The notes under the pieces were generated by a model that saw only the letters and a program-made list of their open reading frames with translations, made no database searches and was not told the origin of the DNA. A DNA stretch of 64,000 bases from the NCBI GenBank assembly GCA_027022365.1, contig JALVYU010000031.1, forward strand, positions 192,001-256,000, written 5' to 3'. The translations under genes and the position numbers were made by a program. Shown piece by piece: positions 2,320-21,555 of the stretch. Position 1 is the first letter of the stretch; every line of letters starts with the position of its first letter. The stretch is from Desulfurococcales archaeon (GTDB taxonomy: Archaea > Thermoproteota > Thermoprotei_A > Sulfolobales > Desulfurococcaceae).

Positions 2320-2328
2320 TAGTGTTCA

Positions 2329-3324
2329 CTATTTAATTATTTGTTTGCATTCATTGGGTGCACTTAGAGCTAAATCGATTGGATCTAATCCTGTTAAACG
2401 GGCAATTCCAGGATATACTACTGCACAAACCGGTTTAACAAGCTGAGGCTTTACTATAATATTAAGACATTTTCTCGACGCTATATCCTTGAATAAATGT
2501 TCTACTAGATCTTTTGAGCCATTGTAAAATCCGCCGACGATACCGGCTTCAATAGCCCCACTGAGACCGAGTCTCCTGGCAGCTGCCCAGATATGATTTA
2601 CGGCATCCTCGGCGACAGAGTGAATGATGCTACATGCAATCTTGTCATTTTCCCTGCAAGCCTTGACTACATAGGGTGCGAATCCGGCGATAATGCTTTT
2701 TGGATCATTTGATGAATAAATATGATCAATTATGTCATATATATTATTCGTACCCATGTACTCCATAAGGAGGGATAATAGAATAGTTTCGCCTCCCCTA
2801 CCGTCATAATACTCGAGAGCTGCTGTAATCCCATCTCTGCCAACACGGTACGCTCCCGCTTTATCGTTGAATAAATGTCCCCAACCACCCACAAGAACCG
2901 TTCTCCCTTCGTGGACACCTAAACAACTGCTCCCAGTACCCATTATCAGTACTATCCCTTCACCCTTCGGGAAACATGATAGCAGAGATGCATAAATATC
3001 GTGATAAACATCAATACGGGCATTGACAAAGTGCTTCCTAAATAGTTCAACATATCTTTGGACGTATTTCCCCCACCCAGTATAGGCCGCGCTTACCCCT
3101 ATAACCGAGACATCCAGTGGAGAAATATTGGCTTGATGAATAATCTCTAGTGCAGCATCCAATATGTTTCTTAACGCATTATCCCATCCAATACTCGCTG
3201 GATTGCCAGATCCTTTCTCCGAGATACCTATGACTAATTGATGTTCATCCATAAATTTTATCAGGACAGCCCTTGTAAGTGTTCCTCCAGCATCTATTCC
3301 TAATGCATAAAATATATTATTCAT
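2329..3324 (-). CDS. BadF/BadG/BcrA/BcrD-family N-acetylglucosamine/N-acetylmuramate kinase-like protein
   Basis: LGIDAGGT, IMGTGS, VGGWGHLFND(K)AG(A)Y motifs of the ASKHA NAGK/MurK group. ATG 3324 chosen over TTG 3372. Confidence 0.85.
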   Translation of the reverse strand: MNNIFYALGIDAGGTLTRAVLIKFMDEHQLVIGISEKGSGNPASIGWDNALRNILDAALEIIHQANISPLDVSVIGVSAAYTGWGKYVQRYVELFRKHFVNARIDVYHDIYASLLSCFPKGEGIVLIMGTGSSCLGVHEGRTVLVGGWGHLFNDKAGAYRVGRDGITAALEYYDGRGGETILLSLLMEYMGTNNIYDIIDHIYSSNDPKSIIAGFAPYVVKACRENDKIACSIIHSVAEDAVNHIWAAARRLGLSGAIEAGIVGGFYNGSKDLVEHLFKDIASRKCLNIIVKPQLVKPVCAVVYPGIARLTGLDPIDLALSAPNECKQIIK

Positions 3325-3505
3325 CTCCACAATGTGCACCCTTCGAGGATTCAGCAATAAACTTGTCTTCAATCTTACTGTAAATATTGTTTGTGTAATA
3401 AGGATGTAATAATATTATTAACCTCACTGTTTTACTACGCAATAAAACACTATATTCAAAACAAATGAAGTGTGCGTATACTAAATATGTGTTTGAGGGA
3501 TACAG

Positions 3506-4717
3506 TTGATCCTAGGATTATGGATTCATCCTTGGGACCTTATAGAGTATGGCATCGAAGAAACATTTGCTCTCGCTGAATCCCTAGGAATAAATCATCT
3601 AAGCCTACCAGTGAGATACATTGAGGAAAGACAAGCATACCCGGGAACCTCAATAATTTACAGAAACAACAAGAACAGGACATATCTGAGCATACGTGGC
3701 GGAGTCTATTGGAGACCTGAACCTAAATATTATGAAGATATTCCAGAGAAGTACAGGCCCCATTTAACATCTGACAAAGATATAGTGAAACAGTTCAGAG
3801 AAACAGCTACCAGTTATAGTGTAAAGCCCGTTTATTGGCTACCCGTCTTACGATGGGATAAGCTAGCGGGAGATTACCCAGAACTCGCCGTTAAGGACCT
3901 TTACGATCATGTAGCAGGCTACAAGGCCCAATTCCTGTGTCCCTCGAACCCCATTGTTAGGAAACTAGTGCTAGGTGTTATAGAAGAGCTATGTACACGG
4001 TATGAGGCCGAGGAAATAGAACTGGACTATATCAGGTATCCCGAGCCAGTTACATATTCTGTTTCTCCTCTTCATATGTTGGCCCAGATGCCGTGTCACT
4101 GCGGATATTGTAGGAAGAAATATTATGAGAAAGGAATTGATCTTGAGCTCCTCGAGGAAAAGCTCAAAGAGCTCGTTGAGCTTGCTGTTGAGGCTGAAGA
4201 CAAGACAGGAAGCGTTTGCGGGAAAAACGTGCCAGAATGTTGGGAGACAGTAGCCTCTATGGGATGGTATCTGTTGGGTGTTAGGACGCCGGAAGTATAT
4301 AAATGGCTTAAAGCCAGAGCTGAGATTATAGCTGAACTCGTGGCTGAGATAAAGGAGAAAACGAAGAGTTACGGAGTCGAGCTCTCAGCCGATATGACTC
4401 CCCCGAGTTTCAGCTGGATCGTTGGACAGGACTACGAACTGTTCTCACCAAACCTAGACCGGGTAAAGGTAATGGTTTATACGGAGCCCTTCCGCAGGTA
4501 CCCGGAGAAAATACCCTTAGATCTATATCTAGCCAAGAAACTGGGTTGCGGAGTACAATTAGTTGCTGGAATATCACTGTGGCCGCCCTCAACACCGCAG
4601 ACCATAGAGCGCGATGTAGAGCTGTCACGTCCCTACGTAGATGGTTTTTACGGTTATTGTTTCGGCTGGGCCCCGTTCAAGAACCTCGAGACCTTTACGG
4701 TTAAGGCCCGGAGGTGA
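3506..4717 (+). CDS. Cytoplasmic GHL10-like TIM-barrel glycoside hydrolase
   Basis: FLCPSNP, IELDYIRYP, CHCGYC, GQDY motifs typical of GHL10/YddW-like proteins; no signal peptide. Confidence 0.65.
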   Translation: MILGLWIHPWDLIEYGIEETFALAESLGINHLSLPVRYIEERQAYPGTSIIYRNNKNRTYLSIRGGVYWRPEPKYYEDIPEKYRPHLTSDKDIVKQFRETATSYSVKPVYWLPVLRWDKLAGDYPELAVKDLYDHVAGYKAQFLCPSNPIVRKLVLGVIEELCTRYEAEEIELDYIRYPEPVTYSVSPLHMLAQMPCHCGYCRKKYYEKGIDLELLEEKLKELVELAVEAEDKTGSVCGKNVPECWETVASMGWYLLGVRTPEVYKWLKARAEIIAELVAEIKEKTKSYGVELSADMTPPSFSWIVGQDYELFSPNLDRVKVMVYTEPFRRYPEKIPLDLYLAKKLGCGVQLVAGISLWPPSTPQTIERDVELSRPYVDGFYGYCFGWAPFKNLETFTVKARR

Positions 4718-4725
4718 GGTCCCCC

Positions 4726-5526
4726 ATGTTCAAGCTCGGAATAAATACTTGGAGTTACCCCAAAACTCTTTCTCTCGAAAAACAGATCGCTCATGCCGCT
4801 AAGACGGGGTTCGAGGCATTCGAGCCCCCGCTGACCCAGGAGGATCTAGAATTACATAGTAAGGGAGAGCTCAGAAAGAAGTGGAAGGCTATAAGAGAAG
4901 CAGCGGAGACCCACGGGATCAAGATACCCAGTGTTGCTACCGGTCTCTACTGGAGATACAATTGGGCGATTGAGCCTGATAAGGCTTTAAAAGTGCTTGA
5001 AGCAGAAGCACATGCCGCCAATACTGTCGGGGCGGACCTTATTCTAGTTGTTCCAGGAACAGGTGTGCCGGAGTTAGGATACGAGGAAATGATTGAGAGG
5101 GTTGCGTCGTCTCTAGGGAAGGCGGAGAAGATCGTTAGGAATTACGGCGTCAGAGTAGGGCTCGAGAATGTATGGAATAGATTCCTTGCAGGCCCTCTCG
5201 AGTTCAGAATGTTGCTTGATAAGTTAGACCCTGACGTTTTCGGCGCTTACTTCGACGCCGGCAATACGTTGCCTCATAGCCTGCCCGAGCACTGGATAAG
5301 AGTGCTTGGCAAAAGGATATTCCAGGTTCACGTCAAAGGCTTTAGCATGGCAGAGCTTAGATTCGGTATACCGTTATTTGGAGATATTAATTGGAAGCAG
5401 GTAAGAAGAGCCCTCGAGGAGATAGGTTATCAGGGCTATGTATTAGCGGAGGTGCCTCCTTACAGAGGGGATCCATACAAGGCTGTCGAGGACACATATA
5501 CCAGCTTGAAGAAGATCTTCGGCTAG
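4726..5526 (+). CDS. Sugar phosphate isomerase/epimerase (xylose isomerase-like/AP endonuclease 2 TIM barrel)
   Basis: GLENVW, YFDAGN, VHVK, GDINW..., GYQG...E metal motifs; GGAGGTGA RBS before ATG 4726. Confidence 0.85.
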   Translation: MFKLGINTWSYPKTLSLEKQIAHAAKTGFEAFEPPLTQEDLELHSKGELRKKWKAIREAAETHGIKIPSVATGLYWRYNWAIEPDKALKVLEAEAHAANTVGADLILVVPGTGVPELGYEEMIERVASSLGKAEKIVRNYGVRVGLENVWNRFLAGPLEFRMLLDKLDPDVFGAYFDAGNTLPHSLPEHWIRVLGKRIFQVHVKGFSMAELRFGIPLFGDINWKQVRRALEEIGYQGYVLAEVPPYRGDPYKAVEDTYTSLKKIFG

Positions 5527-6827
5527 GGCAGACTCGAGGCTATATCTATAATTTTTTCCATAATCTTTTCCCGATCCTCAGGCTCTACGAGGCTTACTAT
5601 TTCCTCATAATAGATATTGTTCACGCCTTGATGGGTTTCAATACTATAGGGTATATAGCCTATATATCCATCGGCATATCCAATAAATGCTAGATAATCA
5701 TATACACTATGTTTCTTAGCCTCCAGCTGGTACTCAATAAAAGCTTCGCCGGGGAAGAAGATAACGAGCACTTTACCACCGATCACACAGTACCTGATCC
5801 TAAAGCTTAATGCCCTTGATTTAAATGCTTTATATTTGTGAAGAAGACTCTTAATACCTTCGAGCACAGACTCAAGTCTCCTGATCTCTCCATGACTACC
5901 CCCACTTATCTTGAGGTTCTCAAGCTTTCTGGCAATATCTTCTTTTATCGAGAGAAGCCTCTCTAGGATCTTTTCAACGTTTTTAAGCCTCACAGTTATG
6001 TCAATATACCGGTTTACAATCCAAGGATCAGGTATGTTTTCAAGTCTTCCGTGCTCTACCGTTTCTGATACACTACGGGCAATCCTGTTCGCCAGCTCCA
6101 TTAATGCATCAATGTTCTGTCCTTTCCGCGTGTGCCGAGTACTAATATTGCCAGCTGCACCGTTCAAGTAAAGTGCTGGGCATCCTAGTTTTTCTTCTAG
6201 GATTATTGAAGTCACGCCTGCCAGATCACCGCTAATATATGTATTAGACGCTGGCAACACTGTAGGATGACAAGCATAATTTACAGCTATGAATTTTCTT
6301 TGGAGCTCGTTCTGAGATAACATTATGACGGCTTCATTGTCCACGGGCCCCCTTGGATCGATCCTATTAGATGCCACGCTTTCTATGATCGACTTACCCA
6401 TATACAATGAGGCTTTGCTAGGAACACTAAGTATGCTTGACACTAATTGATTAATTCTCTCTAGTAAGTATATCCTGTATTTTCGGATCTTACCGACAAT
6501 ATTATCATTTAAATGTAGCGTGCTCCATGTATCCAATGAGATCTCGGGCCCTGAATGAGTGTGAGTTGCAATTACATGTATGATATCTGGTCTTAAACCA
6601 TACTTGCGTGAAATAAGCTCCACTATGTCACTGTATAGCTCATCATCTATTCTGATTAGCTCTAGGCTTAGGAGAAGAATCTCGCCTTCTCCTTCTATAA
6701 ATGCTCCTCTAGCATAGATATTATGTAGTACTCCTTTGGAGTACTCACTACGCATTATATATCCAGCCATAGGAAGAGGTTCACGTGGTGTTATATCTAT
6801 TTTCGACGCCGAAATATTGAATGACAT
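5523..6827 (-). CDS. Neutral/alkaline ceramidase-family Zn amidohydrolase
   Basis: DITP..MAGY, ATHTHSGP, NYACHPT, ISGD, NGAAGNI, PGE.F, GYIP motifs. Confidence 0.8.
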   Translation of the reverse strand: MSFNISASKIDITPREPLPMAGYIMRSEYSKGVLHNIYARGAFIEGEGEILLLSLELIRIDDELYSDIVELISRKYGLRPDIIHVIATHTHSGPEISLDTWSTLHLNDNIVGKIRKYRIYLLERINQLVSSILSVPSKASLYMGKSIIESVASNRIDPRGPVDNEAVIMLSQNELQRKFIAVNYACHPTVLPASNTYISGDLAGVTSIILEEKLGCPALYLNGAAGNISTRHTRKGQNIDALMELANRIARSVSETVEHGRLENIPDPWIVNRYIDITVRLKNVEKILERLLSIKEDIARKLENLKISGGSHGEIRRLESVLEGIKSLLHKYKAFKSRALSFRIRYCVIGGKVLVIFFPGEAFIEYQLEAKKHSVYDYLAFIGYADGYIGYIPYSIETHQGVNNIYYEEIVSLVEPEDREKIMEKIIDIASSLP

Positions 6828-6987
6828 TAAAATGTCACCATGATTTACAATAAATATTTGAAAACGATATGTACAATTGATTGTTTTAGATTAATTTAGA
6901 AAAAAGAGCTATAGTAAAAACGAAAGTAATGTTTACAAAAATTAATAACATATTCTTAAATCAAGTAAAGTTATACAAGCCCTAATA

Positions 6988-8229
6988 ATGGGTGACTACT
7001 ACATTATGTGTTCCAATAAGTTGTTAAAACACATACTAAGACACCCAATATATCTGCGTCATGCATATGATTCGATCATTTCTGATAAACGTGAACAAAC
7101 ATTTTGTGGCTGGAGGAAGGTTTTACTCGGAAAAAGCAGCAATGGAGAGCCAATAGTGGCTTTCGAGAAACAAGTGAACCCGGAAAACCCTAAATTAGTA
7201 GTATTGGCTGGCCAACACGGCAATGAACCTGCTAGTATAGCCGCTGCCTTCGCCCTATTACTCCTATCGGATAATTATAAGTGGGTACTTCCTCATCGGT
7301 TCTGGAGATCAAAAAGTAATTCCATTAATATATACCTAGTACCGGTAGCTAATCCTGATGGTCTTATAAGCTATCTTGAATGTATCGAACACGACCCTAC
7401 ACCAATATGGCATAATACCTGCTCCGAAGCCAGGTATAATTCTAGATCAGCGGATATCAACAGGGACTGGATGTTCTTAATCCAAGATGAAACAAAGATA
7501 CTACATGAATACATTACAAGGATTAAACCAGACATCGTCCTTGATCTCCATGAGTTTTATGCATCAGGAGGATCTCCACCAAAGTGGAGCACGGAAACAG
7601 AAGGATTCGATACAACATTGACCGATGCACCATATGCTATGGTTGATGAGATCGTCTCGGAAACATCCCGCGAGGTAATGGATTATGTCTCAAAAACTTT
7701 GAAGAGGCTAATGGGCAGAAAAATACGTGAAAGACACTTTACCGGAAGCGACAAGCCTTACCCCCCGCCAAGTATCCTGGGTGCTCACCTGCCTCTCGAA
7801 TATTATCCTAAACTACTTGTCGAGACGTGGGGTGTGGGCCTCCACGGTTTTCTATGGAGGGAAAGAGTGGTAACTCACCTCGTAGCAATTTATTCTGTCA
7901 TAGAATACTTGGAGAGCTACCGTGAGAAAATATCTGAGCTACGCTCACGTATTCACGAGTTAGACAACAAAACACCAGGTTATTTGTATTATATTGAATG
8001 CAGTGATGTATGCTACGAGATCTCTGAGCTCTTAAGCATACATGGGATCAGGCATGAAATAAGAGGAGGTAATCTAGTCGTATATCCTGTTGGTAGGGGG
8101 GAGGTAGTTGCAGATATCTTGTTTGATAAATCCTGTAAGTACAATAGGGTTCTTGAGGAGAATGGGTACGGGCGTCATACGATCGATCTGCTTTATCCAG
8201 GTATACGTATTAAGAAACAATTCCTCTAA
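6988..8229 (+). CDS. M14 zinc carboxypeptidase/amidase (MpaA-like)
   Basis: GKSSNG, GQHGNEP (HxxE), VPVANPDG, DINRD, LDLHE Zn-ligand motifs; no signal peptide. Start uncertain. Confidence 0.8.
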   Translation: MGDYYIMCSNKLLKHILRHPIYLRHAYDSIISDKREQTFCGWRKVLLGKSSNGEPIVAFEKQVNPENPKLVVLAGQHGNEPASIAAAFALLLLSDNYKWVLPHRFWRSKSNSINIYLVPVANPDGLISYLECIEHDPTPIWHNTCSEARYNSRSADINRDWMFLIQDETKILHEYITRIKPDIVLDLHEFYASGGSPPKWSTETEGFDTTLTDAPYAMVDEIVSETSREVMDYVSKTLKRLMGRKIRERHFTGSDKPYPPPSILGAHLPLEYYPKLLVETWGVGLHGFLWRERVVTHLVAIYSVIEYLESYREKISELRSRIHELDNKTPGYLYYIECSDVCYEISELLSIHGIRHEIRGGNLVVYPVGRGEVVADILFDKSCKYNRVLEENGYGRHTIDLLYPGIRIKKQFL

Positions 8230-8647
8230 ATGAGCCTCTTATTTTCCATTCTCTTTTCACTGTATATACGAATCCTAATGCATACATAATTAGTATAAGA
8301 ATAGCTATTATTTTGTCCATGGTTGATGGAGTATAAACAAGGCTTGTCAAATAGCCGAGTATTCCCGGCGCGGCAAATAATGTATAGCTGAACAACTTGT
8401 GTCTGATCATTGATCTGATGGCTAGTATCTGTAGCATTATGAATACCATAGACGTGAAGACTAGACCATAGTATTTCTCTCGTATTAGCTCCGAGGATTC
8501 TATGTTATTTATTGTGAGTGGCGTTCCTCCAATCGACACGTTAGGTATGCCGATCGAGATCACTTGTGCAGCCATATAAATGCTATATGCTATGTAAGCG
8601 ATAAACATACACAATATAATTATTGGTAGGAGTTGTTCCCTACTCAT
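8210..8647 (-). CDS. Hypothetical membrane protein (about 4 TM)
   Basis: Hydrophobic segments; starts 3 nt after the dppC-like stop, so probably co-transcribed. Confidence 0.65.
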   Translation of the reverse strand: MSREQLLPIIILCMFIAYIAYSIYMAAQVISIGIPNVSIGGTPLTINNIESSELIREKYYGLVFTSMVFIMLQILAIRSMIRHKLFSYTLFAAPGILGYLTSLVYTPSTMDKIIAILILIMYALGFVYTVKREWKIRGSFRGIVS

Positions 8648-8650
8648 AGA

Positions 8651-9625
8651 TTATCTCCTCCTTAGCCTTGGATTATAGAACTCGATGAGAACCTCGCCAA
8701 TACTGATAAACCCTATTACCACGAGTGCGATGAAGAGCCCGGGCACAAGGAACCACGACCACATTCCCTTGCTGATCACATCGTTCCAGTTCGCATATGA
8801 ATCACTGATAACACTTCCCCAGTCAGCACCTTGTGTGGCAGCAGGTATTAAAAAGGCGAGCGATGTGACGGTCACTATTGCACCAGCCACGAGGATAGTT
8901 GCTCTCGCGAGGGCAAATGGAAGGACTTGTGGCCATACATGTCTCACCAGTATAAAGGTGTTGCTTGCACCTAGACAACGGGATGCCTCCACGTATCCTT
9001 CGCTCTTTATCTGAAGAACTTTGGCTCTGATTGCTCTTGCGGTGGAAGGCCATGATATAGCCGATATAAGCAGTATTGTGAGCCAAATATTCCATACATC
9101 TCTGAACAGGGAGGTGATCAGAATGAGTAGGAGAAGGCCTGGCAACATCATTATGGAGTCGCTTACCAGCATCAAGAAGGCATCGAATTTACTGCCGTAG
9201 TAGCCAGCCAAGCTGCCGATGACCAAGCCAATTAGTGTAGCTATGACTGCGCAGAGAAGACCTGTTGTCAAAGATACTCTGGCTCCATAGACTACTCTTG
9301 ACCAAATATCTCGCCATGCCTGATCGATGCCGAGCGGATGTCCTGGCATAGGCGGTAGAGGGACCGGTTTACCAGTTATTCCATGACTCCTTATCCACTC
9401 CATGATTTTCTGGAACTCCTGTGGCGCCTGCTGGTCTATCGGTACAGGCTTGTAAGGCGTAAACACCTGTGGGAACAAAGCCATGAAGGCAAAGAAAGCA
9501 ATTATCGCTACCCCTACTAGGCCTCTGGGGTCACTCAGGACTGCCTTGATAGGCGGGTATATCGCTTCATATATCTTCTTGTAGAGGGGTATACACACTA
9601 CTTTCTCCTTGCTCACACTGTTCAC
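8651..9625 (-). CDS. Peptide/oligosaccharide ABC transporter permease (DppC/OppC-like)
   Basis: HPLGID..RDIWSRVVYGARVSL, YVEASRCLGA (EAA motif), RHVWP, DWG. Confidence 0.9.
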   Translation of the reverse strand: MNSVSKEKVVCIPLYKKIYEAIYPPIKAVLSDPRGLVGVAIIAFFAFMALFPQVFTPYKPVPIDQQAPQEFQKIMEWIRSHGITGKPVPLPPMPGHPLGIDQAWRDIWSRVVYGARVSLTTGLLCAVIATLIGLVIGSLAGYYGSKFDAFLMLVSDSIMMLPGLLLLILITSLFRDVWNIWLTILLISAISWPSTARAIRAKVLQIKSEGYVEASRCLGASNTFILVRHVWPQVLPFALARATILVAGAIVTVTSLAFLIPAATQGADWGSVISDSYANWNDVISKGMWSWFLVPGLFIALVVIGFISIGEVLIEFYNPRLRRR

Positions 9626-11004: not shown

Positions 11005-11201
11005 TCTCCAGATCGGCTGGAGGTCGACCAGTATCTGGTTTATCCAGTATTGTGGTTATTTCTTGGTAAGTATTCATAGTAAGTGTTAGTATCTTTTGTA
11101 ACTTATACCACATGTACTAACGTCCTTGAATAATATGTGATCTCGATAAAATAATGTCTGATAAGGGAATCCTATACATGAATGTCCGTGAGGGATAGGT
11201 A

Positions 11202-13205: not shown

Positions 13206-13269
13206 AAAACAGATATAGCTAGTTATCATCAAACAAGTCTTTTTCCCATAACGATTATAATGGATATAA

Positions 13270-13290
13270 TTTCTTTATAAGGTAAGTAAA
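13270..13290. promoter_or_regulatory. Repeated intergenic motif TTTCTTTA(T)AAGGTAAGTAAA (candidate operator/promoter), copy 1
   Basis: Near-identical copy at 16702-16721 and partial copy at 11059-11072, all intergenic within the accessory block. Confidence 0.5.
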
Positions 13291-13382
13291 TTATTTACAA
13301 AAACATAATCTCCTATCACCCTGCTATCCATATATAATTGGTACATAACATTAGTAACCCTTTAGAACATTTGGTGGACATT

Positions 13383-14357
13383 ATGTCCTGGATGGAGCCC
13401 CGTAAAATAATAAAAATAGGAGAGAAATCCTATGCGATCACACTCCCCAAGAAATGGGCTAAAATCCTAGGAATAAAGCCTGGGGACTCGGTAAATCTCA
13501 CCATGGATAAGAACGGAGTAATACATGTATACATGATAAACAAGAAGCCGAAGAAAGAAGAAGGCTTCGCAATAGTCCTCGACGCCTCAAAACTATCTCT
13601 CAATGAGCTGGAAGAATGTCTGCGTGGATGTTACATAGAGGGGCTTGATAGTATAATAATCAAAAACCTTAAGCGGGACGAGTTCAAGCCCCCCGTGCTA
13701 AACGATATAATAGTGAAGCTACCCGGAGTAATTATCCTTGAGCCTGGTCCCGAGGACATAGTACTAAAGATAGCAATAACCGAGGACATCATAGACTTAG
13801 ATGAAGTAGTTACAAGGATGTCGCATATCCTCGAGAACATGTTCGACTATATGGAGAGCTATATCAATACAGGAAAGAAGGATGAAGGTGAAACAATACT
13901 TAAACTAGACGATGAGCTAGACAGACTCTACCATCTGGGTCAGAGGCTGATCAGGAAAAAGATGCGTGCAAAAATAATGTCCTCGAGAAACTATCTCGAT
14001 CTACTCGACTACCTAATGATAATCACAAACCTGGAGCATATCGGTGATTGTCTAGACAGAGGCGTAAGGATACTCCTCGAGAAAGAATGGGGAGATATTC
14101 AGGACGAGCTTAGAGAGTCAGTACTGAAATCAAGGAAGATAGTCTTCGACACAATTGCAGGGATAAGATATCCCAACCTTAAAATACTCAGCAATCTAAG
14201 ACTACGGAGAAGAGAACTTAAACAATTACTTAGAAACATCGTGCTGAAAAAACCAGAGTTCAGCGGAGTAGTCAACGAGTTCGAGCTAATATCGACTCTG
14301 AGCACAGACATAGCCGAAGTAACCGTGTTCAGATATCTCAGGAAACAATCAGAGTAA
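13383..14357 (+). CDS. AbrB-PhoU family transcriptional regulator
   Basis: RKIIKIGEKSYAITLPKKW AbrB domain; DDELDRLY...LEHIGD PhoU domain; GGTGGA RBS before ATG 13383. Confidence 0.88.
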   Translation: MSWMEPRKIIKIGEKSYAITLPKKWAKILGIKPGDSVNLTMDKNGVIHVYMINKKPKKEEGFAIVLDASKLSLNELEECLRGCYIEGLDSIIIKNLKRDEFKPPVLNDIIVKLPGVIILEPGPEDIVLKIAITEDIIDLDEVVTRMSHILENMFDYMESYINTGKKDEGETILKLDDELDRLYHLGQRLIRKKMRAKIMSSRNYLDLLDYLMIITNLEHIGDCLDRGVRILLEKEWGDIQDELRESVLKSRKIVFDTIAGIRYPNLKILSNLRLRRRELKQLLRNIVLKKPEFSGVVNEFELISTLSTDIAEVTVFRYLRKQSE

Positions 14358-14447
14358 GTAATCTGAAAGTAATTTTGCATATTATATTCTAAATCATCGG
14401 TTCGCCAAACAGACTAGGTATCGGAACCAAGAATTATTGGTGGTATA

Positions 14448-15458
14448 ATGGTAAAGATCGGGATAATCGGGTATGGTTTTATGGGTTCAACACATGCTAG
14501 AGTATTGAAAACAATTGATGAAGTAGAAATAGTAGCGGTAGCCGATCTAAGTCCTGAGGCGAGAAGGAGAGCCGCCAAGGAACTTCCCAGGGCAAAGATC
14601 TATGATGACGCTGAAAAACTCATAAGAGACAAGGATGTAGAGGCAGTAATAATAGCGACACCTCCTGACACCCATGTAGATTACCTAATAAAGTCTGTGG
14701 TGGAAGGAAAACATGTTCTAGTAGAGAAACCACTTGCTCCATCATTCTCCCATCTAGAGAAGCTCCTCGATCTCGAGATTCCCGACAACATTGTCGTTAT
14801 GAGCGGTTTCAGTTTACGTTATCACAGAATGTATGTTGACCTATATAGACAGATCCAAGGGCTAGGAAGAATATTCATATTCCACCACACAGCCCTTGGA
14901 GGCCTTCCATCAAACGAGTGGCTCCTAGACACGAGGATTAGTGGTGGAATGCTCAACGAGAACGCAGTACATATCATATACTTGTTCCTATGGTACCTGG
15001 GCGAGCCGGAAAAAGTCTATGCAAAACTATACAGTAAGACAGGCAAGGACATGGATGATAACCTAGTTCTAGTGACAAGTATTAAAGGCTCAACTGCCTC
15101 CTTGCTACGTTCATGGACTGCTGGCCAGATAGTCAGATATTATGAGGTCTTGGGTGAAAAAGGGTCAATACATGTAGAGGGCTATTTGGGAGGAAAAATA
15201 ACATGTGTCATAGATGGCACGAAGGAGACCAGAGAATACCCGGTAATAGTTGACGAGATGTATCGGGAAGAACTAATGGATTATATCAACTCGATAAAGA
15301 AGGGTACTCGGCCTAAGACGGGCTTGAGAGAAGCGATACTAATACAGCTGATCGTGGAAGCGGCCAAACAGTCTGCAAAGGAAAACCAGCCAGTATCGAT
15401 AATGGAGGCGGGAGGAGAGCTCGCAAAAGAGCTACTGAGAAAATATCGTAATAGGTAG
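14448..15458 (+). CDS. Gfo/Idh/MocA family NAD(P)-dependent oxidoreductase
   Basis: GIIGYGFMG, IATPPDTH, GKHVLVEKP, SGGML...H motifs. Confidence 0.9.
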   Translation: MVKIGIIGYGFMGSTHARVLKTIDEVEIVAVADLSPEARRRAAKELPRAKIYDDAEKLIRDKDVEAVIIATPPDTHVDYLIKSVVEGKHVLVEKPLAPSFSHLEKLLDLEIPDNIVVMSGFSLRYHRMYVDLYRQIQGLGRIFIFHHTALGGLPSNEWLLDTRISGGMLNENAVHIIYLFLWYLGEPEKVYAKLYSKTGKDMDDNLVLVTSIKGSTASLLRSWTAGQIVRYYEVLGEKGSIHVEGYLGGKITCVIDGTKETREYPVIVDEMYREELMDYINSIKKGTRPKTGLREAILIQLIVEAAKQSAKENQPVSIMEAGGELAKELLRKYRNR

Positions 15459-15472
15459 AGGTAATTAGTACA

Positions 15473-16696
15473 TTGCAAATAAGGATAGCCGACCCAGAGG
15501 ATCTGGAAGGAATAACTAGTGTTCTCAGGGAATCATTCAACGTATACCGCTGCATAGGGATAGACAAGGAGTACTTAGAAAAGCTCTTCAGAGTAGACGA
15601 TAGTGTTACATCCAATGCCGTATTCGTAGTAGAGGAGGACGGCAGAATAGTCTCGGTAACAATGGTTGTTGAGCGAGAGATAAGGACTGCTATAGGATGG
15701 TTACCCTTCGCGGGAATCGCCAATGTTGCCACGCACCCTAAGTATAGAGGTAGAGGTCTTGCCTCGAAGCTTCTCGCATTCATAGAGAAGCACTATGAAG
15801 AGAAGCAATACCCGCTGATAGGCCTTCTGGCAGGCTATGGTGAGCCGGCCCATAGGCTGTATCGTCGCAGAGGATTTTATGACATCGCCTATTACAGGGA
15901 GAGAATATTCGTGCTAGACGATATACCTAAGCTGGTATCACAGCTAAGAATAAGAACCTATGGAGAAAAACTGGATGGATCAGTACTCCCGATAACGGAG
16001 GCAGGAGCAGAACAACTTTATAAGCTCTATAATTCATGGATAGCAGCCAGATATTATGGCGTCTTCAAACGCTCCCTGAGAAGATGGAGGGGGATCCTGG
16101 AGACTAACCAGTATGCTACATGGTTTCTCGGCGACCACGCTGAGGGATGGTACTATGAACTGGAAAGTGGCAAGGCATACTCTTTGGTCTACATGATCAA
16201 GAATTCTCCGCTGAGTGGATGCAGGGATCGTTATGCCGCATACATACTAGAGATTGTTGCAGAGCCGCGTCATTACCCGCTCGTTCTAGCGGATACTCTG
16301 GAGAAACTGGTCGATTCTGGCGCTAAAACCATATACTATAGGCCTCCTCCCGACAAGGAATACATGGTGGAGAAAACCCGGCTCATAGTACCCGATGAAA
16401 CCCTCATGGTGAAGCCATGTTGTGCGGAATGCTTGGTCAAGCTCCTCCAGAACCATTTTAAGGAAGCAACAATAAATGTGGACAGCCGAGCAAACATAGT
16501 CATGGAATACCCGTCCGGGGCGATAGAGTTTACACCTGATAGTCTGCTAAGGATAATCCTGGGCGTCTCGGATCCCTTCGAAGAATACTTTAATGGAAAG
16601 ATAAGAGTGAGGGGTGACTATAAGATATTGTTAGAGGGGTTCAGTGCGGACTTGATATTCAGACCGCACTATATCCCTCTCATAGACAAGTGGTAA
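15473..16696 (+). CDS. Eis/GlmA-like GNAT N-acetyltransferase with C-terminal SCP2-like domain
   Basis: GIANVATHPKYRGRGLAS acetyl-CoA motif, LYRRRGF; C-terminal DPFEEYFNGKIRVRGD resembles SCP2; about 400 aa. Confidence 0.8.
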   Translation: MQIRIADPEDLEGITSVLRESFNVYRCIGIDKEYLEKLFRVDDSVTSNAVFVVEEDGRIVSVTMVVEREIRTAIGWLPFAGIANVATHPKYRGRGLASKLLAFIEKHYEEKQYPLIGLLAGYGEPAHRLYRRRGFYDIAYYRERIFVLDDIPKLVSQLRIRTYGEKLDGSVLPITEAGAEQLYKLYNSWIAARYYGVFKRSLRRWRGILETNQYATWFLGDHAEGWYYELESGKAYSLVYMIKNSPLSGCRDRYAAYILEIVAEPRHYPLVLADTLEKLVDSGAKTIYYRPPPDKEYMVEKTRLIVPDETLMVKPCCAECLVKLLQNHFKEATINVDSRANIVMEYPSGAIEFTPDSLLRIILGVSDPFEEYFNGKIRVRGDYKILLEGFSADLIFRPHYIPLIDKW

Positions 16697-16701
16697 TGAA
16701 T

Positions 16702-16721
16702 TTTCTTTAAAGGTAAGTAAA
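16702..16721. promoter_or_regulatory. Repeated intergenic motif TTTCTTTAAAGGTAAGTAAA, copy 2
   Basis: Matches 13270-13290 except for one T; upstream of the large surface hydrolase gene. Confidence 0.5.
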
Positions 16722-16878
16722 ATAATATATTGTTTCTCACGACAGCCCATAAGGATTCCGGCCAGGCAGAGTACTGTAGCCCCGCATTCATGTATGTTAT
16801 AATGTTTCCCAGTCTTTTCAATAATTACTAACGTTACAATAATCGCATATGACTCCTCATAGAAGGATTGGTGGGAAT

Positions 16879-19800
16879 GTGAGATTATCGCCTAAACCTG
16901 TCCTGCTCGGTCTTCTGATAATAATTAGTCTTCTAGCACCCATTGCTACTCTAACGATGTCAAGCTCTACCGAAAAAGTGGGAATCGCACTGATCTTCCC
17001 GGATCACCGGCCCGGCAACCCGGCCTATGCTAATGCCACAGTCGACGTACTAATAACAATCAATAAACTGATCTATTCATCACAGCCCGAACTATACATG
17101 ATCACGGCTCCGGCCTCTCTACCCATAGCAATGCCTAAGGGCACTATCGTAGGGTACGTGACTCTACAGGAATACCAGGTAATAGCCGAAGCAGTAGCAA
17201 AGACTGGTGGTTACGTTAAGCTAGTTAAGATCAGTAAGCTACCAGCGGTGCCAGCTATACAGTTATTGCCTATAAGGATCGCCGTGTTCGACAATGGAGC
17301 TATTGGAGAAATAAGTCTCCCAGACGTGTTGACGAAAATGGGGTTCAAGTACAGTGTTCTTGAGAATTCTTCTATAACCGATTTACTCCGACATAAATAC
17401 GATCTTGTCATACTACCGCCCGGAAGCGGAACTGCAACGGCACGAGCTCTAGGTATTGGAGGATCTAAAATACTGGCCAAATTTGTCGCAACAGGAGGTG
17501 GCCTCATAGGCATATGTGCCGGAGCATATGCTGTGATAAAAGGATATAATGAACCGACATCATGGCTCCAGCTTGTCGCTGCAACCCTTAAGAACTGGCC
17601 AATATGGTATCTCGGCGTAGGAGTCGTAGAGATAAACATTACTGGCGATACTCCGGTAACCTATGGCTTCAAGGGCCCCGCGGAATTCATTTACTGGAAC
17701 GGCCCTGTCCTAGTACCCTATAACTTAGGCTCCGATACTACACTAGGACTAGCAGTCGAGCCGCCTACACCGCTTGCCTATTACATAGGACCCCTAGGAA
17801 CAGAATCCTTTAAGCCAGGCAGTGGTCTCAATCTCACCTATGTGGCCAACGTCATGAAGGACGGCTACGCCATTACCGTGTCCACTTATGGTAGTGGCAG
17901 AATAGTACTATTCTCTGTACACCCAGAGCTCATGGAGGGCCTAGTCTCAGAGACTCCAAAGGCTAGGCTCCAGGACGACTATAACTGGAGAATGCTCTGG
18001 AACGCGATCTACTATGTTGCTGGTAAGAGGGTGAACCTTGGACAGAGAATAATCGGTACATGGATGTGGCCATCACTAATAACACATGCATACCAAGCAT
18101 TGCTTAAGGAGAAATACCCGTCCGGCGCTACAGCCGAGGAGAAACTAGCCGTCCTAAAGGAGGCCCTTAACTATATAGCATTGGAGCTTAAATCCTACAA
18201 CATAACCGACGTATTCCTCGAAGTAAAACTCTTGTCAGGAACACTTATCTGGCCCAGTAGTCTCGCCGAGAAATACCGTGTTCCTACACTATGCGGAAAA
18301 GACGGTGAAGAGCCATGGAACCTGACAAACGTAGTCAAGCTATTCGCTGATACACTGCATAAATACGGGATAAGGCTCCATGCATGGATTATAGTATGGT
18401 ATGATATGACATGGGGTAAGCGCGACCCCATGTATCATTGTGCTAAATGGTACTCAGCCACAAAGTATAGGCCGCCTTACCCCGTAACAAGCCGTGTACG
18501 ATTATTCAACACAACATACCAGGAATACATCGCGGAACTAGCCCGCGACCTAGTACTAAACTGTGACGTGGACGGAATTCAGCTAGACTACATAAGGTGG
18601 CCACACGTTGTCTATAGTTTCGGGCCAAGAGACTTCAAACTAGCAGAAGAACACGGCATTAACCTGACCAAAGTACAATGGTATGTTATGCTGACCTACT
18701 ACGGTATGCCTAACATGTCGATTCCCCCGAACCCAAGCCTGATCTTCGAGAAATACTACGTAGAGAAAGACCTCGATGTCGTTAAATGGTTTGAACTCAG
18801 AAGACAAGCTGTTGTAAACATCACAGTCAAAGTAAGAGATGCTGTCCTCTCCACTGGAAAGCACCTAATATTATCGGCCGCGCTAATGCCTGAAGAGGGC
18901 ACACCCTACGTAATACAGACAGTAACCGATCCTGCGACTGGGAAGAAATATACTGCCGAAATACCGGGCAAGGCATGGCAGTGGGTCCACTATGGACAGC
19001 ACTACTCTGACTTTGCCCGCGAAGGATACTGGCTGATCCCTATGACATACTATCTCGACTGGGGACAGCCTCCAAGCTGGATAGAAACGGTGGCCCGCTA
19101 CGCACTAAGCGTTGTCTCGAACATTAACCCGGAAGACAAAGTACTTTCAGGAATACAGGCATATGGTGGTGTGACGTATAATGATGTTCAGAACGAGATA
19201 TCATACGCCATCGAATCCGGAGCGCAGGGATGGGTATACTTCGTATGGAACGACTACCGTGACATAGCGTGGAGCTACCTCTCGAAACAATACATGCCAG
19301 AGATTGATGAGGCTAAAAACTTATTGGTAGGACCACTAATGCTCCAGGCAGAGGTTCTTAACGATACAAGTCTTGAAAAACAAATAAACGATATGGTAGC
19401 CACGATAAGATCGATTGGTACATCCTACTACAAACCATACCTGCCGACAATAGCGGGCGAAATTATAAGTAAAACAATGATGCTTGTAAAGGCATCAGCA
19501 CAAGGGCTGCTCAAGAAACTCGAAGAACAGGAAACAGTAGCAAAGGCAATAGCACCATCGCTGGCCAGCTACTATGACCATATCCTCGGCGAAGCCAGGG
19601 ATATGGTCTCAGAGATTATGTCGACGAGGAAGTTATCAGAGCTAACACCGCTCTACATGGAGCTGATCGAGAAGACTGTTCCAGCATACATCATAGTAGC
19701 AACAGCCTATAACCTATCATCGAAAATAACAGACTTAACAGGTTATACGAAGACACTGGCATTCAAGCTCTCCAGCATGATCAGTAGCGAAGAGAACAAA

Positions 19801-20088
19801 ATAGCCGAGCTAGGGAAAGTAGCCGAGAAACTATCGAGTACTCTGAGCAGCATTGAGAAGTCGATAGCCACGAATAAGGCAGAGATTACCAGCATAGAGC
19901 AAGAACTGGCAAATATGAAGAAAAATATCGATAGCTTATCTAAGGACACGTCATCGCTACAAGAAGAGCTGTCAAAGATAAAGAACAGCATAAACAACCA
20001 GTTGATCCTTGGACTTGTAGTATTAACGCTGATAATATCTATTGTAGCCCTCATAGCCGGGCTATATGCAGTGGTCAGGAAACATTAG
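16879..20088 (+). CDS. Cell-surface multidomain hydrolase: class I GATase-like (BPL_N-type) domain + GHL10-like glycosidase + coiled-coil stalk + C-terminal TM
   Basis: Signal peptide; LPPGSG, GICAGAY (Cys nucleophile elbow), YWNGP, SVHPE (His-x-Glu); GIRLHAW, DGIQLDYIRWP, YGQHY, IPMTY; heptad-rich C-terminus; TM plus RKH. GTG 16879 follows a GGTGG RBS. Confidence 0.75.
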   Translation: MRLSPKPVLLGLLIIISLLAPIATLTMSSSTEKVGIALIFPDHRPGNPAYANATVDVLITINKLIYSSQPELYMITAPASLPIAMPKGTIVGYVTLQEYQVIAEAVAKTGGYVKLVKISKLPAVPAIQLLPIRIAVFDNGAIGEISLPDVLTKMGFKYSVLENSSITDLLRHKYDLVILPPGSGTATARALGIGGSKILAKFVATGGGLIGICAGAYAVIKGYNEPTSWLQLVAATLKNWPIWYLGVGVVEINITGDTPVTYGFKGPAEFIYWNGPVLVPYNLGSDTTLGLAVEPPTPLAYYIGPLGTESFKPGSGLNLTYVANVMKDGYAITVSTYGSGRIVLFSVHPELMEGLVSETPKARLQDDYNWRMLWNAIYYVAGKRVNLGQRIIGTWMWPSLITHAYQALLKEKYPSGATAEEKLAVLKEALNYIALELKSYNITDVFLEVKLLSGTLIWPSSLAEKYRVPTLCGKDGEEPWNLTNVVKLFADTLHKYGIRLHAWIIVWYDMTWGKRDPMYHCAKWYSATKYRPPYPVTSRVRLFNTTYQEYIAELARDLVLNCDVDGIQLDYIRWPHVVYSFGPRDFKLAEEHGINLTKVQWYVMLTYYGMPNMSIPPNPSLIFEKYYVEKDLDVVKWFELRRQAVVNITVKVRDAVLSTGKHLILSAALMPEEGTPYVIQTVTDPATGKKYTAEIPGKAWQWVHYGQHYSDFAREGYWLIPMTYYLDWGQPPSWIETVARYALSVVSNINPEDKVLSGIQAYGGVTYNDVQNEISYAIESGAQGWVYFVWNDYRDIAWSYLSKQYMPEIDEAKNLLVGPLMLQAEVLNDTSLEKQINDMVATIRSIGTSYYKPYLPTIAGEIISKTMMLVKASAQGLLKKLEEQETVAKAIAPSLASYYDHILGEARDMVSEIMSTRKLSELTPLYMELIEKTVPAYIIVATAYNLSSKITDLTGYTKTLAFKLSSMISSEENKIAELGKVAEKLSSTLSSIEKSIATNKAEITSIEQELANMKKNIDSLSKDTSSLQEELSKIKNSINNQLILGLVVLTLIISIVALIAGLYAVVRKH

Positions 20089-20136
20089 GTTATTTATCCG
20101 TAAAACCGTTTTTTCCCTTATGGGTGTAAAGCTGTT

Positions 20137-21093
20137 TTGCGGGAATTACATCGTTTGACTAGATCTATTAGCGAATTGATCACAGCAAACGATCCGAGCC
20201 ATCGCGGGGTAATTTACCTTTTAGCCGAAGCCCTAAAGAGGAAAATAGAGGATCCACTCGGTAATGCTCTCGGATTGCTGGCGGATACTTCTTCATTAGT
20301 GATAGTAACAGGGTTTAATGTACCTCCGGATTATCGTCCTGAGACCGATGGGATAATAGGTGCGGCTGTGCTTGCAAGAGCATTTCTCGATATAGGTTCT
20401 AATGAGGTTGTGATAGTTCTTGATGATAAGGAACAGAGAATGATTATGGAACATCTTATAAAGATACTTTTGAATGTGAATGCCGTCTCGGAAAAAATAG
20501 TGTTCTTGACCCGTATTGATAACGAGTACTTATTCAGAGAGATTCTCGCCGAGGAGATCTCTTCTAGGGATATCGGGCTCGGAATATTCATCGAGAAACC
20601 ATCACCTAATAGGGAGGGAGTAATACATAATATGCGCGGCATTGACGTGACGCAACACCATCTAGACCCAAGAATATTGCTGTGTGTTTTCAAGGAAATG
20701 GGTGTCAAAACAATAGGTATAGGTGATGGCGGCAATGAAGTCGGGCTAGGAATAATAGAGGAAGATGTAAGGAAATACGTACCATATGGGAACATGTGTG
20801 CATGTCCATGTAGATCAGGTATAGCTTCATCGACCCTCACAGACACTGTGATAGTATCGACAGTCAGTAACTGGGGAGCATATGCGCTCGAAGCCCTGCT
20901 CCTAGCGATTAACGACAAGCCCGAATACATCCATAGCGGGAACGAAGAGAAAATGCTTATCGAGGAAAGCATACGAAAAGGCGCCATTGACGGAGTCCGT
21001 GGCAGAGGCTTCGTAGGCGTTGATGGAATACCGCCTAGTTTTCATGCAAATATAGTTGATACTATCAAGATGATCACTTTATCGCTTTTATAG
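20137..21093 (+). CDS. D-glutamate cyclase family protein (DUF4392/DGLUCY-like)
   Basis: IVTGF, PETDG..GA, IEKP, HNMRG, GIGDGGNEVGLG, VSNWGAY motifs. Confidence 0.85.
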   Translation: MRELHRLTRSISELITANDPSHRGVIYLLAEALKRKIEDPLGNALGLLADTSSLVIVTGFNVPPDYRPETDGIIGAAVLARAFLDIGSNEVVIVLDDKEQRMIMEHLIKILLNVNAVSEKIVFLTRIDNEYLFREILAEEISSRDIGLGIFIEKPSPNREGVIHNMRGIDVTQHHLDPRILLCVFKEMGVKTIGIGDGGNEVGLGIIEEDVRKYVPYGNMCACPCRSGIASSTLTDTVIVSTVSNWGAYALEALLLAINDKPEYIHSGNEEKMLIEESIRKGAIDGVRGRGFVGVDGIPPSFHANIVDTIKMITLSLL

Positions 21094-21186
21094 TTATCTT
21101 AACTGTTTTAAAGCTACTCGACAAGATAGTGATATATACAGTTGGGGATAATGCATGCAATAAACTGTTGAATAGCTAAGGCGATA

Positions 21187-21555
21187 ATGTTGGAAATACT
21201 AATCGACAAAAAAGCGATGAAATACATTAGGAAACTAGACGAGAACCTTAGAAAAGCGGTTGAATCACTGAATGATCCCAGCCTCGTCGATAAGTTTCTC
21301 AAGAAAGCAAGTAGAATCGTTGATAAAATACATAATGAATACTGTATAGACTCTGAGTGCGACAGCCTAGTACTCGTTATAGACAATATATACTATAATA
21401 TCCTCCAGATCTTGGATGAAGCAGTTAAAAACAATATCACTTCAGACAAAGCAATAGAGCTTGTCGAAAAATACTTGTCCAAGCTTGAAAGATTACTTCC
21501 CAAAGAACACATAGAAGAGGGATCACTTATAAGAAGGTTATTTGAACTATTCTAA
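21187..21555 (+). CDS. Hypothetical helical protein
   Basis: 122-aa ORF with charged, coding-like composition; no family recognised. Confidence 0.55.
   Translation: MLEILIDKKAMKYIRKLDENLRKAVESLNDPSLVDKFLKKASRIVDKIHNEYCIDSECDSLVLVIDNIYYNILQILDEAVKNNITSDKAIELVEKYLSKLERLLPKEHIEEGSLIRRLFELF

Follow-up and report, generated by a model that had tools for sequence, protein, structure and literature searches.

What does an archaeon without murein of its own do with a set of genes that recalls the recycling of bacterial cell walls? The question is raised by a stretch of 64,000 nucleotides from a Desulfurococcales archaeon (GCA_027022365.1, contig JALVYU010000031.1, positions 192,001 to 256,000; hereafter the window), in which fourteen intact open reading frames (ORFs) lie at positions 2329-21093. 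An initial annotation had read these genes as one system for scavenging bacterial murein, and all gene families it named are present as intact ORFs in Pfam and NCBIfam scans of the translations, on which the family assignments given here are based. We find that thirteen of the genes (g01-g13; Table 1) are co-inherited as a horizontally shared accessory island of 17.8 kb (window 2312-20112). The core of this island, comprising an M14 peptidase, a ceramidase-fold amidase, a GHL-type glycosidase, and a Gfo/Idh/MocA oxidoreductase (Gfo), is a genuine module, shared between domains, for an N-acetylhexosamine glycoconjugate with amide-linked amino acids. What stands of the scavenging proposal is a conserved uptake-and-degradation unit for an amino-sugar conjugate, whereas the murein-specific steps are absent. 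With regard to the substrate, the gene families lead us to place first, if only tentatively, the harvest of an environmental N-acetylhexosamine-based glycopeptide, most likely fragments of bacterial murein.

Presence and absence of the island

Two genomes of the same genus, G005 and G004, align collinearly with window positions 1-2354 at 93-94% identity (blastn), and the collinearity resumes at 20036/20080 with 84-90% identity; the stretch between these points has no counterpart in either. In a third genome of the genus, G001, the entire block is present twice. The same pattern is found inside a single vent sample: sequencing run X6 contains a contig at depth 93 that joins positions 2311 and 20113 directly, skipping 17,801 bases, and the flanks reach depths of 93-115x as compared to 1.3-9x for the island. 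The island is hence polymorphic within one vent population and absent from about 90% of it. Run X4, which comes from an independent study, provides one contig of 47,173 bases that covers window positions 1500-21499, including both junctions, with 184 differences, and the gene context is therefore not an assembly artefact. Altogether, 12 public runs carry window sequence; all are DNA, and the nine with an organism label are hydrothermal-vent metagenomes.

The island sits between a Pyr_redox_2/DUF1667 gene pair (window 621-2319) and g14, beyond which an FGGY carbohydrate kinase is encoded at 21955-23514; these flanks have what we take to be the look of a glycerol-type utilisation neighbourhood. 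Reading of the junction sequences revealed nothing obvious in the way of repeats or an integrase at the borders. At the island's expected position, G005 holds about 300 bases of unrelated sequence as well as a short remnant (locus L009, 19500-19860) resembling the 3' end of g01, in comparison with window 2320-2354 and 20086-20112. The remnant is compatible with an old deletion and hints at loss rather than gain, without proving it. In contigs from three other runs, 21 bases are inserted after position 19890, which is strain variation in the length of the g13 coiled-coil stalk, and contigs from the same three runs lack one base at 20109, in the spacer preceding g14.

A module shared by archaea and bacteria

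The M14 gene of the island, g05, belongs to a clade of about 48 proteins with E-values below 1e-36, followed by a gap to E-values of about 1e-13. Scanning one genome per species with an alignment of 35 clade proteins recovered 60 loci, 24 of them at E <= 1e-41. Fifteen of these 24 loci are archaeal, two being the copies of G001, and nine are bacterial (Acetothermia, Thermotogaceae, three Bacteroidota, Caldithrix, two KSB1, and Melioribacter). We searched all loci with the fourteen window proteins (tblastn); given that many contigs measure only 6-12 kb, the resulting counts are lower bounds. A ceramidase-like gene (g04) and a GHL gene resembling g02 or g13 were each recovered from at least 13 of the 24 loci, followed by the Gfo gene g11 (at least 11), the TIM-barrel gene g03 (at least 8), the permeases g07 and g08 (at least 6), the kinase g01 and the GNAT acetyltransferase g12 (at least 5 each), the putative regulator g10 (at least 4), and the binding protein g09 (at least 2). 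By contrast, the 36 loci whose M14 genes are more distant gave five matches in total (two ceramidase-like, two Gfo, and one g13-like); the clustering is not due to chance. Homologues of g02 neighbour the M14 gene in loci L019-L023 and L038, and those of g10 do so in L018, L019, L020, and L024.

The gene content of these loci points to amino sugars. In the FCB group, the genes follow one constant arrangement: GHL10-like, GNAT, ceramidase-like, DegT aminotransferase, Gfo, M14, GH3, Na+/solute symporter, and CBM9-like, with an RpiR/SIS regulator and a TonB-dependent receptor nearby. Representatives annotated from the archaeal, Acetothermia, and Thermotogaceae loci contribute further genes, namely NagA (TIGR00221, 345 bits), a SIS_2 isomerase (PRK02947; not MurQ), a GlmS-like gene, GH84, and a CUT1 sugar transporter, and a NagZ-type GH3 is present in six bacterial loci. 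The Gfo gene is paired with a TIM barrel in archaea and with a DegT aminotransferase in bacteria. It is this synteny of the core in 15 archaeal and nine bacterial loci, in the annotated ones next to genes for the catabolism of N-acetylglucosamine (GlcNAc), that establishes the cross-domain module, and the core of the system outlined by the initial annotation does recur elsewhere, its genes co-occurring in both domains. Two of the Desulfurococcales loci with the M14 module also contain a gene for an Asp/Glu/hydantoin racemase, immediately next to NagA and the SIS isomerase (L022, 17962-18801; L031, 7854-8585).

Genes on both strands and a transporter without its own ATPases might suggest that unrelated genes came to lie together by chance, or that the block is an artefact of assembly. 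Gain or loss in one piece, the synteny of the core across two domains, and the independent 47-kb contig refute this explanation.

The contiguity of the block, as initially described, holds for g01-g13 and ends before the last gene. The D-glutamate-cyclase-like gene g14 had been counted as a member of the system; however, it is present without island genes in G005, G004, and G002, it occurs in none of the 24 related loci, only 7 of 41 relatives have homologues, and in G034, from another family, it is surrounded by housekeeping genes. Given its presence in genomes lacking the island and the absence of linkage, g14 is not a member of the unit.

The module is found in Thermoproteota and Thermococcales as well as in Thermotogota, Bipolaricaulota, Bacteroidota, Ignavibacteriota, Calditrichota, and KSB1. 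Since bacteria of six phyla have it too, the module is not something that archaea devised against the walls of other organisms. In a tree of the M14 proteins, all FCB bacteria group together (100/100), and the Acetothermia and Thermotogaceae sequences are nested among archaea. Within the window's own order, the M14 clade was detected in 7 of 151 sampled genomes, including the one studied here, and in none of 18 other genomes of the family. Homologues of the M14 gene exist in Pyrococcus kukulkanii and a Thermococcus sp., and the 35 homologues of the surface enzyme g13 include proteins from Thermococcus barophilus, T. gammatolerans, P. kukulkanii, and the Desulfurococcaceae archaeon MEX13E-LK6-19, in which the g13 homologue carries the tag J4526_08700 and the M14 gene the tag J4526_08710.

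This distribution also bears on the idea that the island recycles or remodels glycans of the producer's own envelope, i.e. N-glycans of the surface layer (S-layer) or an exopolymer, rather than foreign material. N-glycans of Crenarchaea contain chitobiose cores, and g13 is tethered to the surface of its producer on a coiled coil reminiscent of S-layer stalks (SlaB-like match, 6e-4). Yet the island is dispensable, being missing from two genomes of the genus and from most of the vent population described above, the M14 clade is rare in the order and the family, and the bacterial module resides beside TonB receptors and symporters, which are settings of nutrient acquisition. We therefore regard a role in envelope turnover as improbable.

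Full-text literature searches, which did not cover supplements, returned no description of the locus, of the pairing of ceramidase-like and M14 genes, or of archaeal MurQ/NamZ clusters, in agreement with the initial annotation, which had known of no earlier account of such a locus.

Enzymes, importer, and the candidate substrate

Table 1. Genes of the island (g01-g13) and its neighbour g14, with window coordinates and the matches on which each assignment is based.
Gene	Predicted product	Coordinates	Strand	Basis
g01	BadF-type kinase, GlcNAc/MurNAc-kinase-like	2329-3372	-	BadF/BcrAD PF01869, 7.8e-28
g02	Cytoplasmic GHL-type TIM-barrel glycosidase (DUF4015)	3506-4717	+	PF13200, 7e-07, 29.1 bits (cut-off 27)
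g03	Xylose-isomerase-like TIM barrel, sugar or sugar-phosphate isomerase/epimerase	4714-5526	+	PF01261, 3.3e-34
g04	Neutral-ceramidase-fold Zn amidohydrolase	5523-6827	-	N-terminal domain PF04734, 2.4e-11
g05	Cytoplasmic M14 metallocarboxypeptidase, extra C-terminal domain	6988-8229	+	Peptidase_M14 PF00246, 3e-11
g06	Hydrophobic membrane protein, 145 amino acids	8210-8647	-	
g07	Opp/Dpp-type permease, OppC-like	8651-9625	-	PF00528, OppC_N; Opp4C, 1.8e-53
g08	Opp/Dpp-type permease, OppB-like	9622-11004	-	PF00528 at residues 254-460
g09	Family-5 solute-binding protein, Thr-rich linker, C-terminal membrane anchor	11202-13205	+	SBP_bac_5 PF00496, 5.6e-61
g10	AbrB/MazE-type DNA-binding and PhoU domains, putative regulator	13338-14357	+	Family scans
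g11	Gfo/Idh/MocA NAD(P) sugar oxidoreductase	14448-15458	+	PF01408 and C-terminal domains
g12	GNAT acetyltransferase, 407 amino acids	15473-16696	+	Acetyltransf_9 PF13527, 2.4e-19, N-terminal domain
g13	Surface-anchored two-domain enzyme, 1079 amino acids	16849-20088	+	BPL_N, weak GHL10/DUF4015, coiled coil, C-terminal anchor
g14	D-glutamate-cyclase-like, outside island	20137-21093	+	GLUCM-like_C PF14336, 5.9e-62

The largest protein of the island, g13, consists of an N-terminal hydrophobic segment, a GATase-type domain (residues ~130-395), a GHL10-like TIM barrel (~400-820), a coiled-coil stalk, and a C-terminal transmembrane anchor. When the barrel was compared with the Protein Data Bank (PDB) as a nine-sequence profile, the best solved relative was Cwp19 (5oq2, 1.1e-9), with an alignment that takes in the strand motif DG(I/V)H(L/F)D; the next match followed at 3e-5, and PgaB, an enzyme acting on poly-N-acetylglucosamine (PNAG), is among the weak ones. 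Cwp19 of C. difficile is reported to be a GHL10 peptidoglycan lytic transglycosylase (PMC6016235), and DigH of E. coli, the other characterised GHL10 enzyme, is described as a glycosyl hydrolase of cell separation (PMC12288456). Relatives of g13 show the Pfam families PF02638, PF13200, and PF14871 (GHL6) in varying combinations. Scanned in isolation, the N-terminal domain matches BPL_N above the cut-off (34.5-52.8 bits) and GATase class I below it (4.6e-4); a profile of this domain with its flanks gave no meaningful PDB match (lowest E-value 0.029, in a coiled-coil region). The nucleophile-elbow motif GICAG (G-I/V-C-A-G) and an HPE motif are kept in seven of seven homologues (four archaeal, three bacterial). 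Bacterial homologues carry the two domains in reverse order, which argues that they work together, and since the GATase-type domain is secreted without a synthase partner, it would act as a hydrolase of an amide or gamma-glutamyl bond rather than as an amidotransferase. The initial annotation of g13 as a surface hydrolase of GATase-like/GHL10 type is hence borne out by BPL_N, the catalytic triad, and Cwp19; its GHL10 part falls below the Pfam cut-off. A second GHL10-like enzyme had been listed as well, and it exists in the form of the DUF4015 protein g02, which shows no N-terminal signal sequence and resembles g13 only weakly (E 5e-4). Elsewhere in the genome, a second ORF, of 766 amino acids (G000:C11:141193-141756), gives a sub-threshold GHL10 match of 21.8 bits.

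The predicted cytoplasmic amidase g04 is assigned to the neutral-ceramidase fold. A profile of 12 homologues matches the neutral ceramidase of P. aeruginosa (2zws) at 1.4e-22 with an identical AATHTHSGP motif, and residues H89, H91, R155, H187, E361, Y384, and Y388 are invariant; their roles in Zn binding and catalysis, as we assume from the alignment with 2zws and from the literature, are those of the ceramidases. In a Foldseek search with the AlphaFold2 model (mean predicted local distance difference test, pLDDT, 88.6), the top four rows are neutral ceramidases (TMq 0.72-0.74), the only ones with E < 1e-20, and the other two rows with E <= 0.001 reach TMq values of at most 0.15. The protein has 434 amino acids as compared to 646-688 in the ceramidases: the catalytic domain alone aligns, and the C-terminal immunoglobulin-like domain is absent. 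In the M14 protein g05, residues H77/E80/H188, R149, N158-R159, and E279 are invariant among 35 relatives. Following carboxypeptidase A numbering, these are presumably the Zn ligands, an Arg and Asn-Arg clamp for the substrate carboxylate, and, with E279, the catalytic Glu. Judged by such motifs, the catalytic residue sets of g04, g05, and the GATase-type domain of g13 are intact.

The best solved relatives of the kinase g01 are 8zo3, named a kinase of N-acetylmuramic acid (MurNAc) as well as GlcNAc (7.3e-23), and 2e2n, named a hexokinase (2.1e-20); the NCBIfam model NagK_SO3507 matches below its cut-off (5.3e-28). The link to MurNAc/GlcNAc kinases that had been drawn for this BadF-type protein is supported at the level of the nearest solved structure, and the choice between sugars is not legible from these matches. 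For the acetyltransferase g12, an Eis-like or GlmA-like protein had been suggested. Its N-terminal Acetyltransf_9 domain and its length fit the Eis/GlmA type; however, Pfam and PDB searches detected neither a second GNAT nor an SCP2 domain at the C-terminus, the Eis model of NCBIfam matches at 1.4e-4 only, and the PDB matches are weak GNATs. The NCBIfam matches of the oxidoreductase g11 are all sub-threshold, led by IolG (3.4e-41) and UDP-GlcNAc 3-dehydrogenase (6.2e-27), and those of g03 are weak and sub-threshold, to L-ribulose-5-phosphate 3-epimerase and IolO. The small membrane protein g06, which was missing from the initial list, has no family in the Pfam and NCBIfam scans and is conserved in the same-genus copies only.

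The importer consists of the binding protein g09 and the permeases g07 and g08, and the island encodes no ATPases for it. In the whole genome, oligo_HPY ATPases occur as just three pairs (C31:185.8-187.0 kb, C31:369.5-370.7 kb, and C7:158.3-159.6 kb), which belong to its three other Opp-like operons; the nearest pair lies 5-6 kb upstream of window base 1. In the PDB, g09 matches DppA at 2e-22 and oligosaccharide binders at 3e-21 to 3e-19; the relative listed next to the 3e-21 binder (4pfu, 3.2e-19) is named a mannoside binder. With no match better than 2e-22, and with DppA and the chitin-oligosaccharide, mannoside, and cellobiose binders at about equal distance, the cargo of g09 is not readable at this level. 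The permease g08 measures 460 amino acids, NCBIfam models match it from about residue 186, and roughly 150 extra residues at its N-terminus have no family.

These assignments, of a two-domain surface enzyme, an Opp-family importer, and six cytoplasmic enzymes, can be combined into a pathway, in which the order of reactions and the substrate are deduced from family membership. Outside the membrane, on its coiled-coil stalk, g13 would cut the glycan with its GHL10-like barrel and hydrolyse an amide or gamma-glutamyl bond with its Cys-His-Glu GATase-type domain, both domains together releasing soluble glycopeptides. The anchored g09 and the permeases g07/g08 would import the fragments, with ATPases borrowed from another Opp operon. 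In the cytoplasm, the DUF4015 glycosidase g02 could split the sugars, the ceramidase-fold amidase g04 might take off an amide-linked acyl or peptide group, and the M14 carboxypeptidase g05 would trim the peptide from its free carboxyl end. The acetyltransferase g12 may re-acetylate de-N-acetylated hexosamine; the kinase g01 would then produce GlcNAc-6-phosphate, which NagA and a SIS-type deaminase, both encoded 67 kb away, could convert to fructose-6-phosphate. A second sugar, other than GlcNAc, would be oxidised and isomerised by g11 and g03, and g10 might regulate the divergent operons.

Why would murein be the substrate? A barrel that would cut glycans and is related to murein enzymes, a secreted amidase with a triad, another amidase in the cytoplasm, a carboxypeptidase, a GNAT enzyme, and a kinase resembling MurK make up a set that suits a hexosamine glycopeptide, and among such polymers murein is the most common in places of bacterial death. 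Several observations lean the same way: the proximity of the g13 barrel to Cwp19 and of g01 to a MurNAc/GlcNAc kinase, as far as homology can tell, the racemase gene beside NagA in L022 and L031, and the presence of MurQ in two of five archaeal carrier genomes. True MurQ is also found in three of five bacterial carriers. In the archaeal carrier locus L093 (G177:C7:6501-26500, 8538-10644), MurQ adjoins NamZ, and in L092 (G176:C1:210001-230000, 3458-15044) a series of genes encodes an OPT transporter, a C39-like peptidase, an ornithine/diaminopimelate decarboxylase, GH3, a BadF kinase, MurQ (336 bits, above the cut-off), and NamZ, with a beta-lactamase-family gene two genes further on. L092 is located on a 647-kb contig of a Thermoproteota genome listed as 99% complete, which also carries an M14-ceramidase-kinase trio (L035), not adjacent to the MurQ cluster. 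On the same contig, an intein containing a LAGLIDADG domain splits a gene for an anaerobic ribonucleotide reductase (L092 15528-18905). Among 301 sampled Thermoproteota genomes, MurQ scores above the cut-off in 31, concentrated in few families, none of them among the sampled families of the window's own order. Archaea of this phylum thus hold genes for the catabolism of murein sugars, and the window organism has only the uncharacterised module. A complementarity between MurQ and the Gfo/TIM-barrel pair among carriers was considered and dropped, as the sample is small and the pattern not clean: three MurQ-less archaeal genomes have the pair in, or partly in, the locus, one of the two MurQ-bearing ones lacks it, and three bacterial carriers have both MurQ and Gfo.

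Other evidence counts against murein. In the window organism's genome, which is 99.97% complete, the best score for MurQ is 38.3 bits (TIGR00274, cut-off 302), tblastn with the L092 proteins gave no match for NamZ, GH3, OPT, or the beta-lactamase family (AmiE-type), and the GH3 of L037 as a query gave none either. Amidase_2 (PF01510), Amidase_3 (PF01520), and LdcA (Peptidase_S66, PF02016) have no match in this genome, nor does it encode a homologue of the L022 racemase; for the MurNAc-L-Ala amidase step, the ceramidase-fold g04 might serve as a replacement. What it does encode, on the same contig and 56-96 kb beyond the island, is NagA (C31:280190-281353), a SIS_2 protein (C31:279326-280075), two GlmS-like genes, and GH84, with unrelated genes around NagA and the SIS isomerase. 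Given that NagA and SIS are present and the MurNAc-specific steps absent, GlcNAc would be usable and MurNAc by no known route. At the level of single proteins, g13 scores 20.3 and 22.2 bits against GHL10 (PF02638; cut-off 27.9), indicating a distant relationship, and no LysM or other murein-binding module is listed in the precomputed Pfam domains of the 35 g13 homologues. MpaA, cited in the initial annotation as a precedent for the M14 enzyme, finds no special likeness in g05: the protein reaches 22.5 bits in the MpaA model of NCBIfam (cut-off 157), MpaA is the weakest listed match of the g05 profile search (8e-4), and Foldseek with the AlphaFold2 model (pLDDT 90.4) returned generic carboxypeptidases, CPA-type first (TMt ~0.6), for which reason we dropped the fold as a guide to the substrate. 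Likewise, the binding protein had been compared with MppA, which at 1.5e-13 scores below both the peptide and the oligosaccharide binders. The transporters of the annotated relatives (CUT1, SSF, TonB) suggest sugar-like cargo, no murein pathway described so far has a place for the Gfo/TIM-barrel pair of archaea or the Gfo/DegT pair of bacteria, and g14, the gene that would have dealt with D-glutamate, is unlinked.

Many of these points would be explained if the same machinery acted on another hexosamine glycoconjugate with amide-linked substituents, with the Gfo/TIM-barrel or Gfo/DegT pair handling an unusual sugar. We consider this a serious possibility, if still a doubtful one, and spread it jointly over several candidates: glycopeptides of S-layer or N-glycoproteins (GlcNAc-Asn cores), a partly de-N-acetylated exopolysaccharide (PNAG- or chitosan-like), amino-acid-amidated or 3-amino sugars, and the pseudomurein of vent methanogens. 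All known MurNAc-specific steps are absent from the genome, and the related loci combine sugar-type transporters with general GlcNAc enzymes (GH84, NagZ-type GH3, NagA, SIS). The equal distance of g09 from chitin-oligosaccharide, mannoside, and cellobiose binders, the sub-threshold matches of g11 to IolG and UDP-GlcNAc 3-dehydrogenase together with the bacterial pairing with a DegT sugar aminotransferase, and the weak matches to PgaB in the GHL clan fit as well. In addition, a ceramidase fold may be suited to the removal of N-acyl groups from a 2-amino-1,3-diol such as a hexosamine. Such a conjugate gives the better account of the Gfo pairs and of the relatives' transporters, but not of everything. 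The best solved relative of the g13 barrel is a murein enzyme by four orders of magnitude, that of g01 is a MurNAc/GlcNAc kinase, and no chitinase-type or endo-N-acetylglucosaminidase-type family is among the matches listed for the scanned proteins. Moreover, chitin, PNAG, and chitosan contain no peptide, yet the conserved secreted Cys-His-Glu amidase domain and the M14 carboxypeptidase imply one. Inositol or inosamine conjugates (suggested by the IolG match of g11), N-acyl glucosamine of the lipid A type, and poly-gamma-glutamate were rejected, because none of them covers the whole gene set.

If murein is the substrate, its use might follow a MurQ-independent route of wall-eating common to hyperthermophilic archaea and several bacterial phyla, although we rate this specific version as unlikely. 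It would combine three enzyme activities that are new: a bifunctional, surface-tethered g13-type enzyme (a GHL10-like muramidase or lytic transglycosylase with a Cys-His-Glu gamma-glutamyl/iso-glutaminyl amidase), a ceramidase-fold MurNAc-peptide amidase, and a pair of Gfo/Idh/MocA and TIM-barrel enzymes (in bacteria, Gfo and an aminotransferase) by which MurNAc would be removed with no need for an etherase.

Bacterial murein constitutes a large pool of carbon and nitrogen in the necromass of vents and sediments, and access to it by archaea has barely been described. Should the murein reading hold true, a wall-less archaeon would possess an optional set of tools, shared horizontally, with which to feed on the walls of bacteria and largely assembled from families without an assigned function: short ceramidase-fold amidases, the M14 clade, and GHL/DUF4015 barrels fused to a triad GATase domain. 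Whether the substrate is murein or another glycoconjugate, the module represents a conserved and uncharacterised catabolic pathway. Homologues of g13 and of the M14 gene in named Thermococcus and Pyrococcus species make it directly testable at the bench.

Relation to known systems

Bacterial murein recycling comes in several layouts, including Opp-MppA/AmpG-NagZ-AmpD-LdcA-MpaA-MurQ in E. coli, NamZ-NagZ-AmiE-MurQ in B. subtilis, and MurK-GlmA in C. acetobutylicum. The logic of the island is that of these routes, with a glycan cleaver at the cell surface and an importer of the Opp family, then a glycosidase in the cytoplasm, an amidase, an M14 peptidase, a GNAT enzyme, a BadF-type kinase, NagA, and a deaminase. 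Most of the parts, however, are non-orthologous. The island genome has no MurQ, NamZ, GH3, Amidase_2/3, LdcA, or AmiE-type gene; it has a ceramidase-fold amidase, an M14 enzyme without special likeness to MpaA, and an unexplained Gfo/TIM-barrel pair, and its host contains no murein. As the defining MurQ and amidase steps were not found, we do not claim membership of a known murein pathway.

The individual components show the same mixture of likeness and difference. Of the GHL10 peptidoglycan glycosidases Cwp19 and DigH, Cwp19 is the nearest solved structure to the barrel of g13, and both it and g13 are located at the surface. In g13, a GATase-type domain bearing the triad and a coiled-coil anchor are fused to the barrel, whereas Cwp19 carries CWB2 repeats (PMC6016235). 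The importer has the SBP_bac_5 fold of Opp/Dpp-family oligosaccharide importers, such as those for mannosides and cellobiose in Thermotoga or for chitin oligosaccharides, and g09 scores equally well with these and with peptide binders, without being closely related to any of them (no E-value better than 2e-22). Similarly, g04 shares the catalytic-domain fold as well as the Zn and catalytic residues with the neutral ceramidases of P. aeruginosa (2zws) and human (4wgk), and differs from them in lacking the C-terminal domain, in its predicted cytoplasmic location, and in residing in an amino-sugar locus; the organisms that carry it are not known to make sphingolipids.

The closest archaeal point of comparison is the MurQ cluster of L092. 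While the canonical bacterial enzymes encoded there are all missing from the window genome, both organisms belong to the same phylum, and the L092 genome holds, in addition to its MurQ cluster, the M14-ceramidase-kinase trio.

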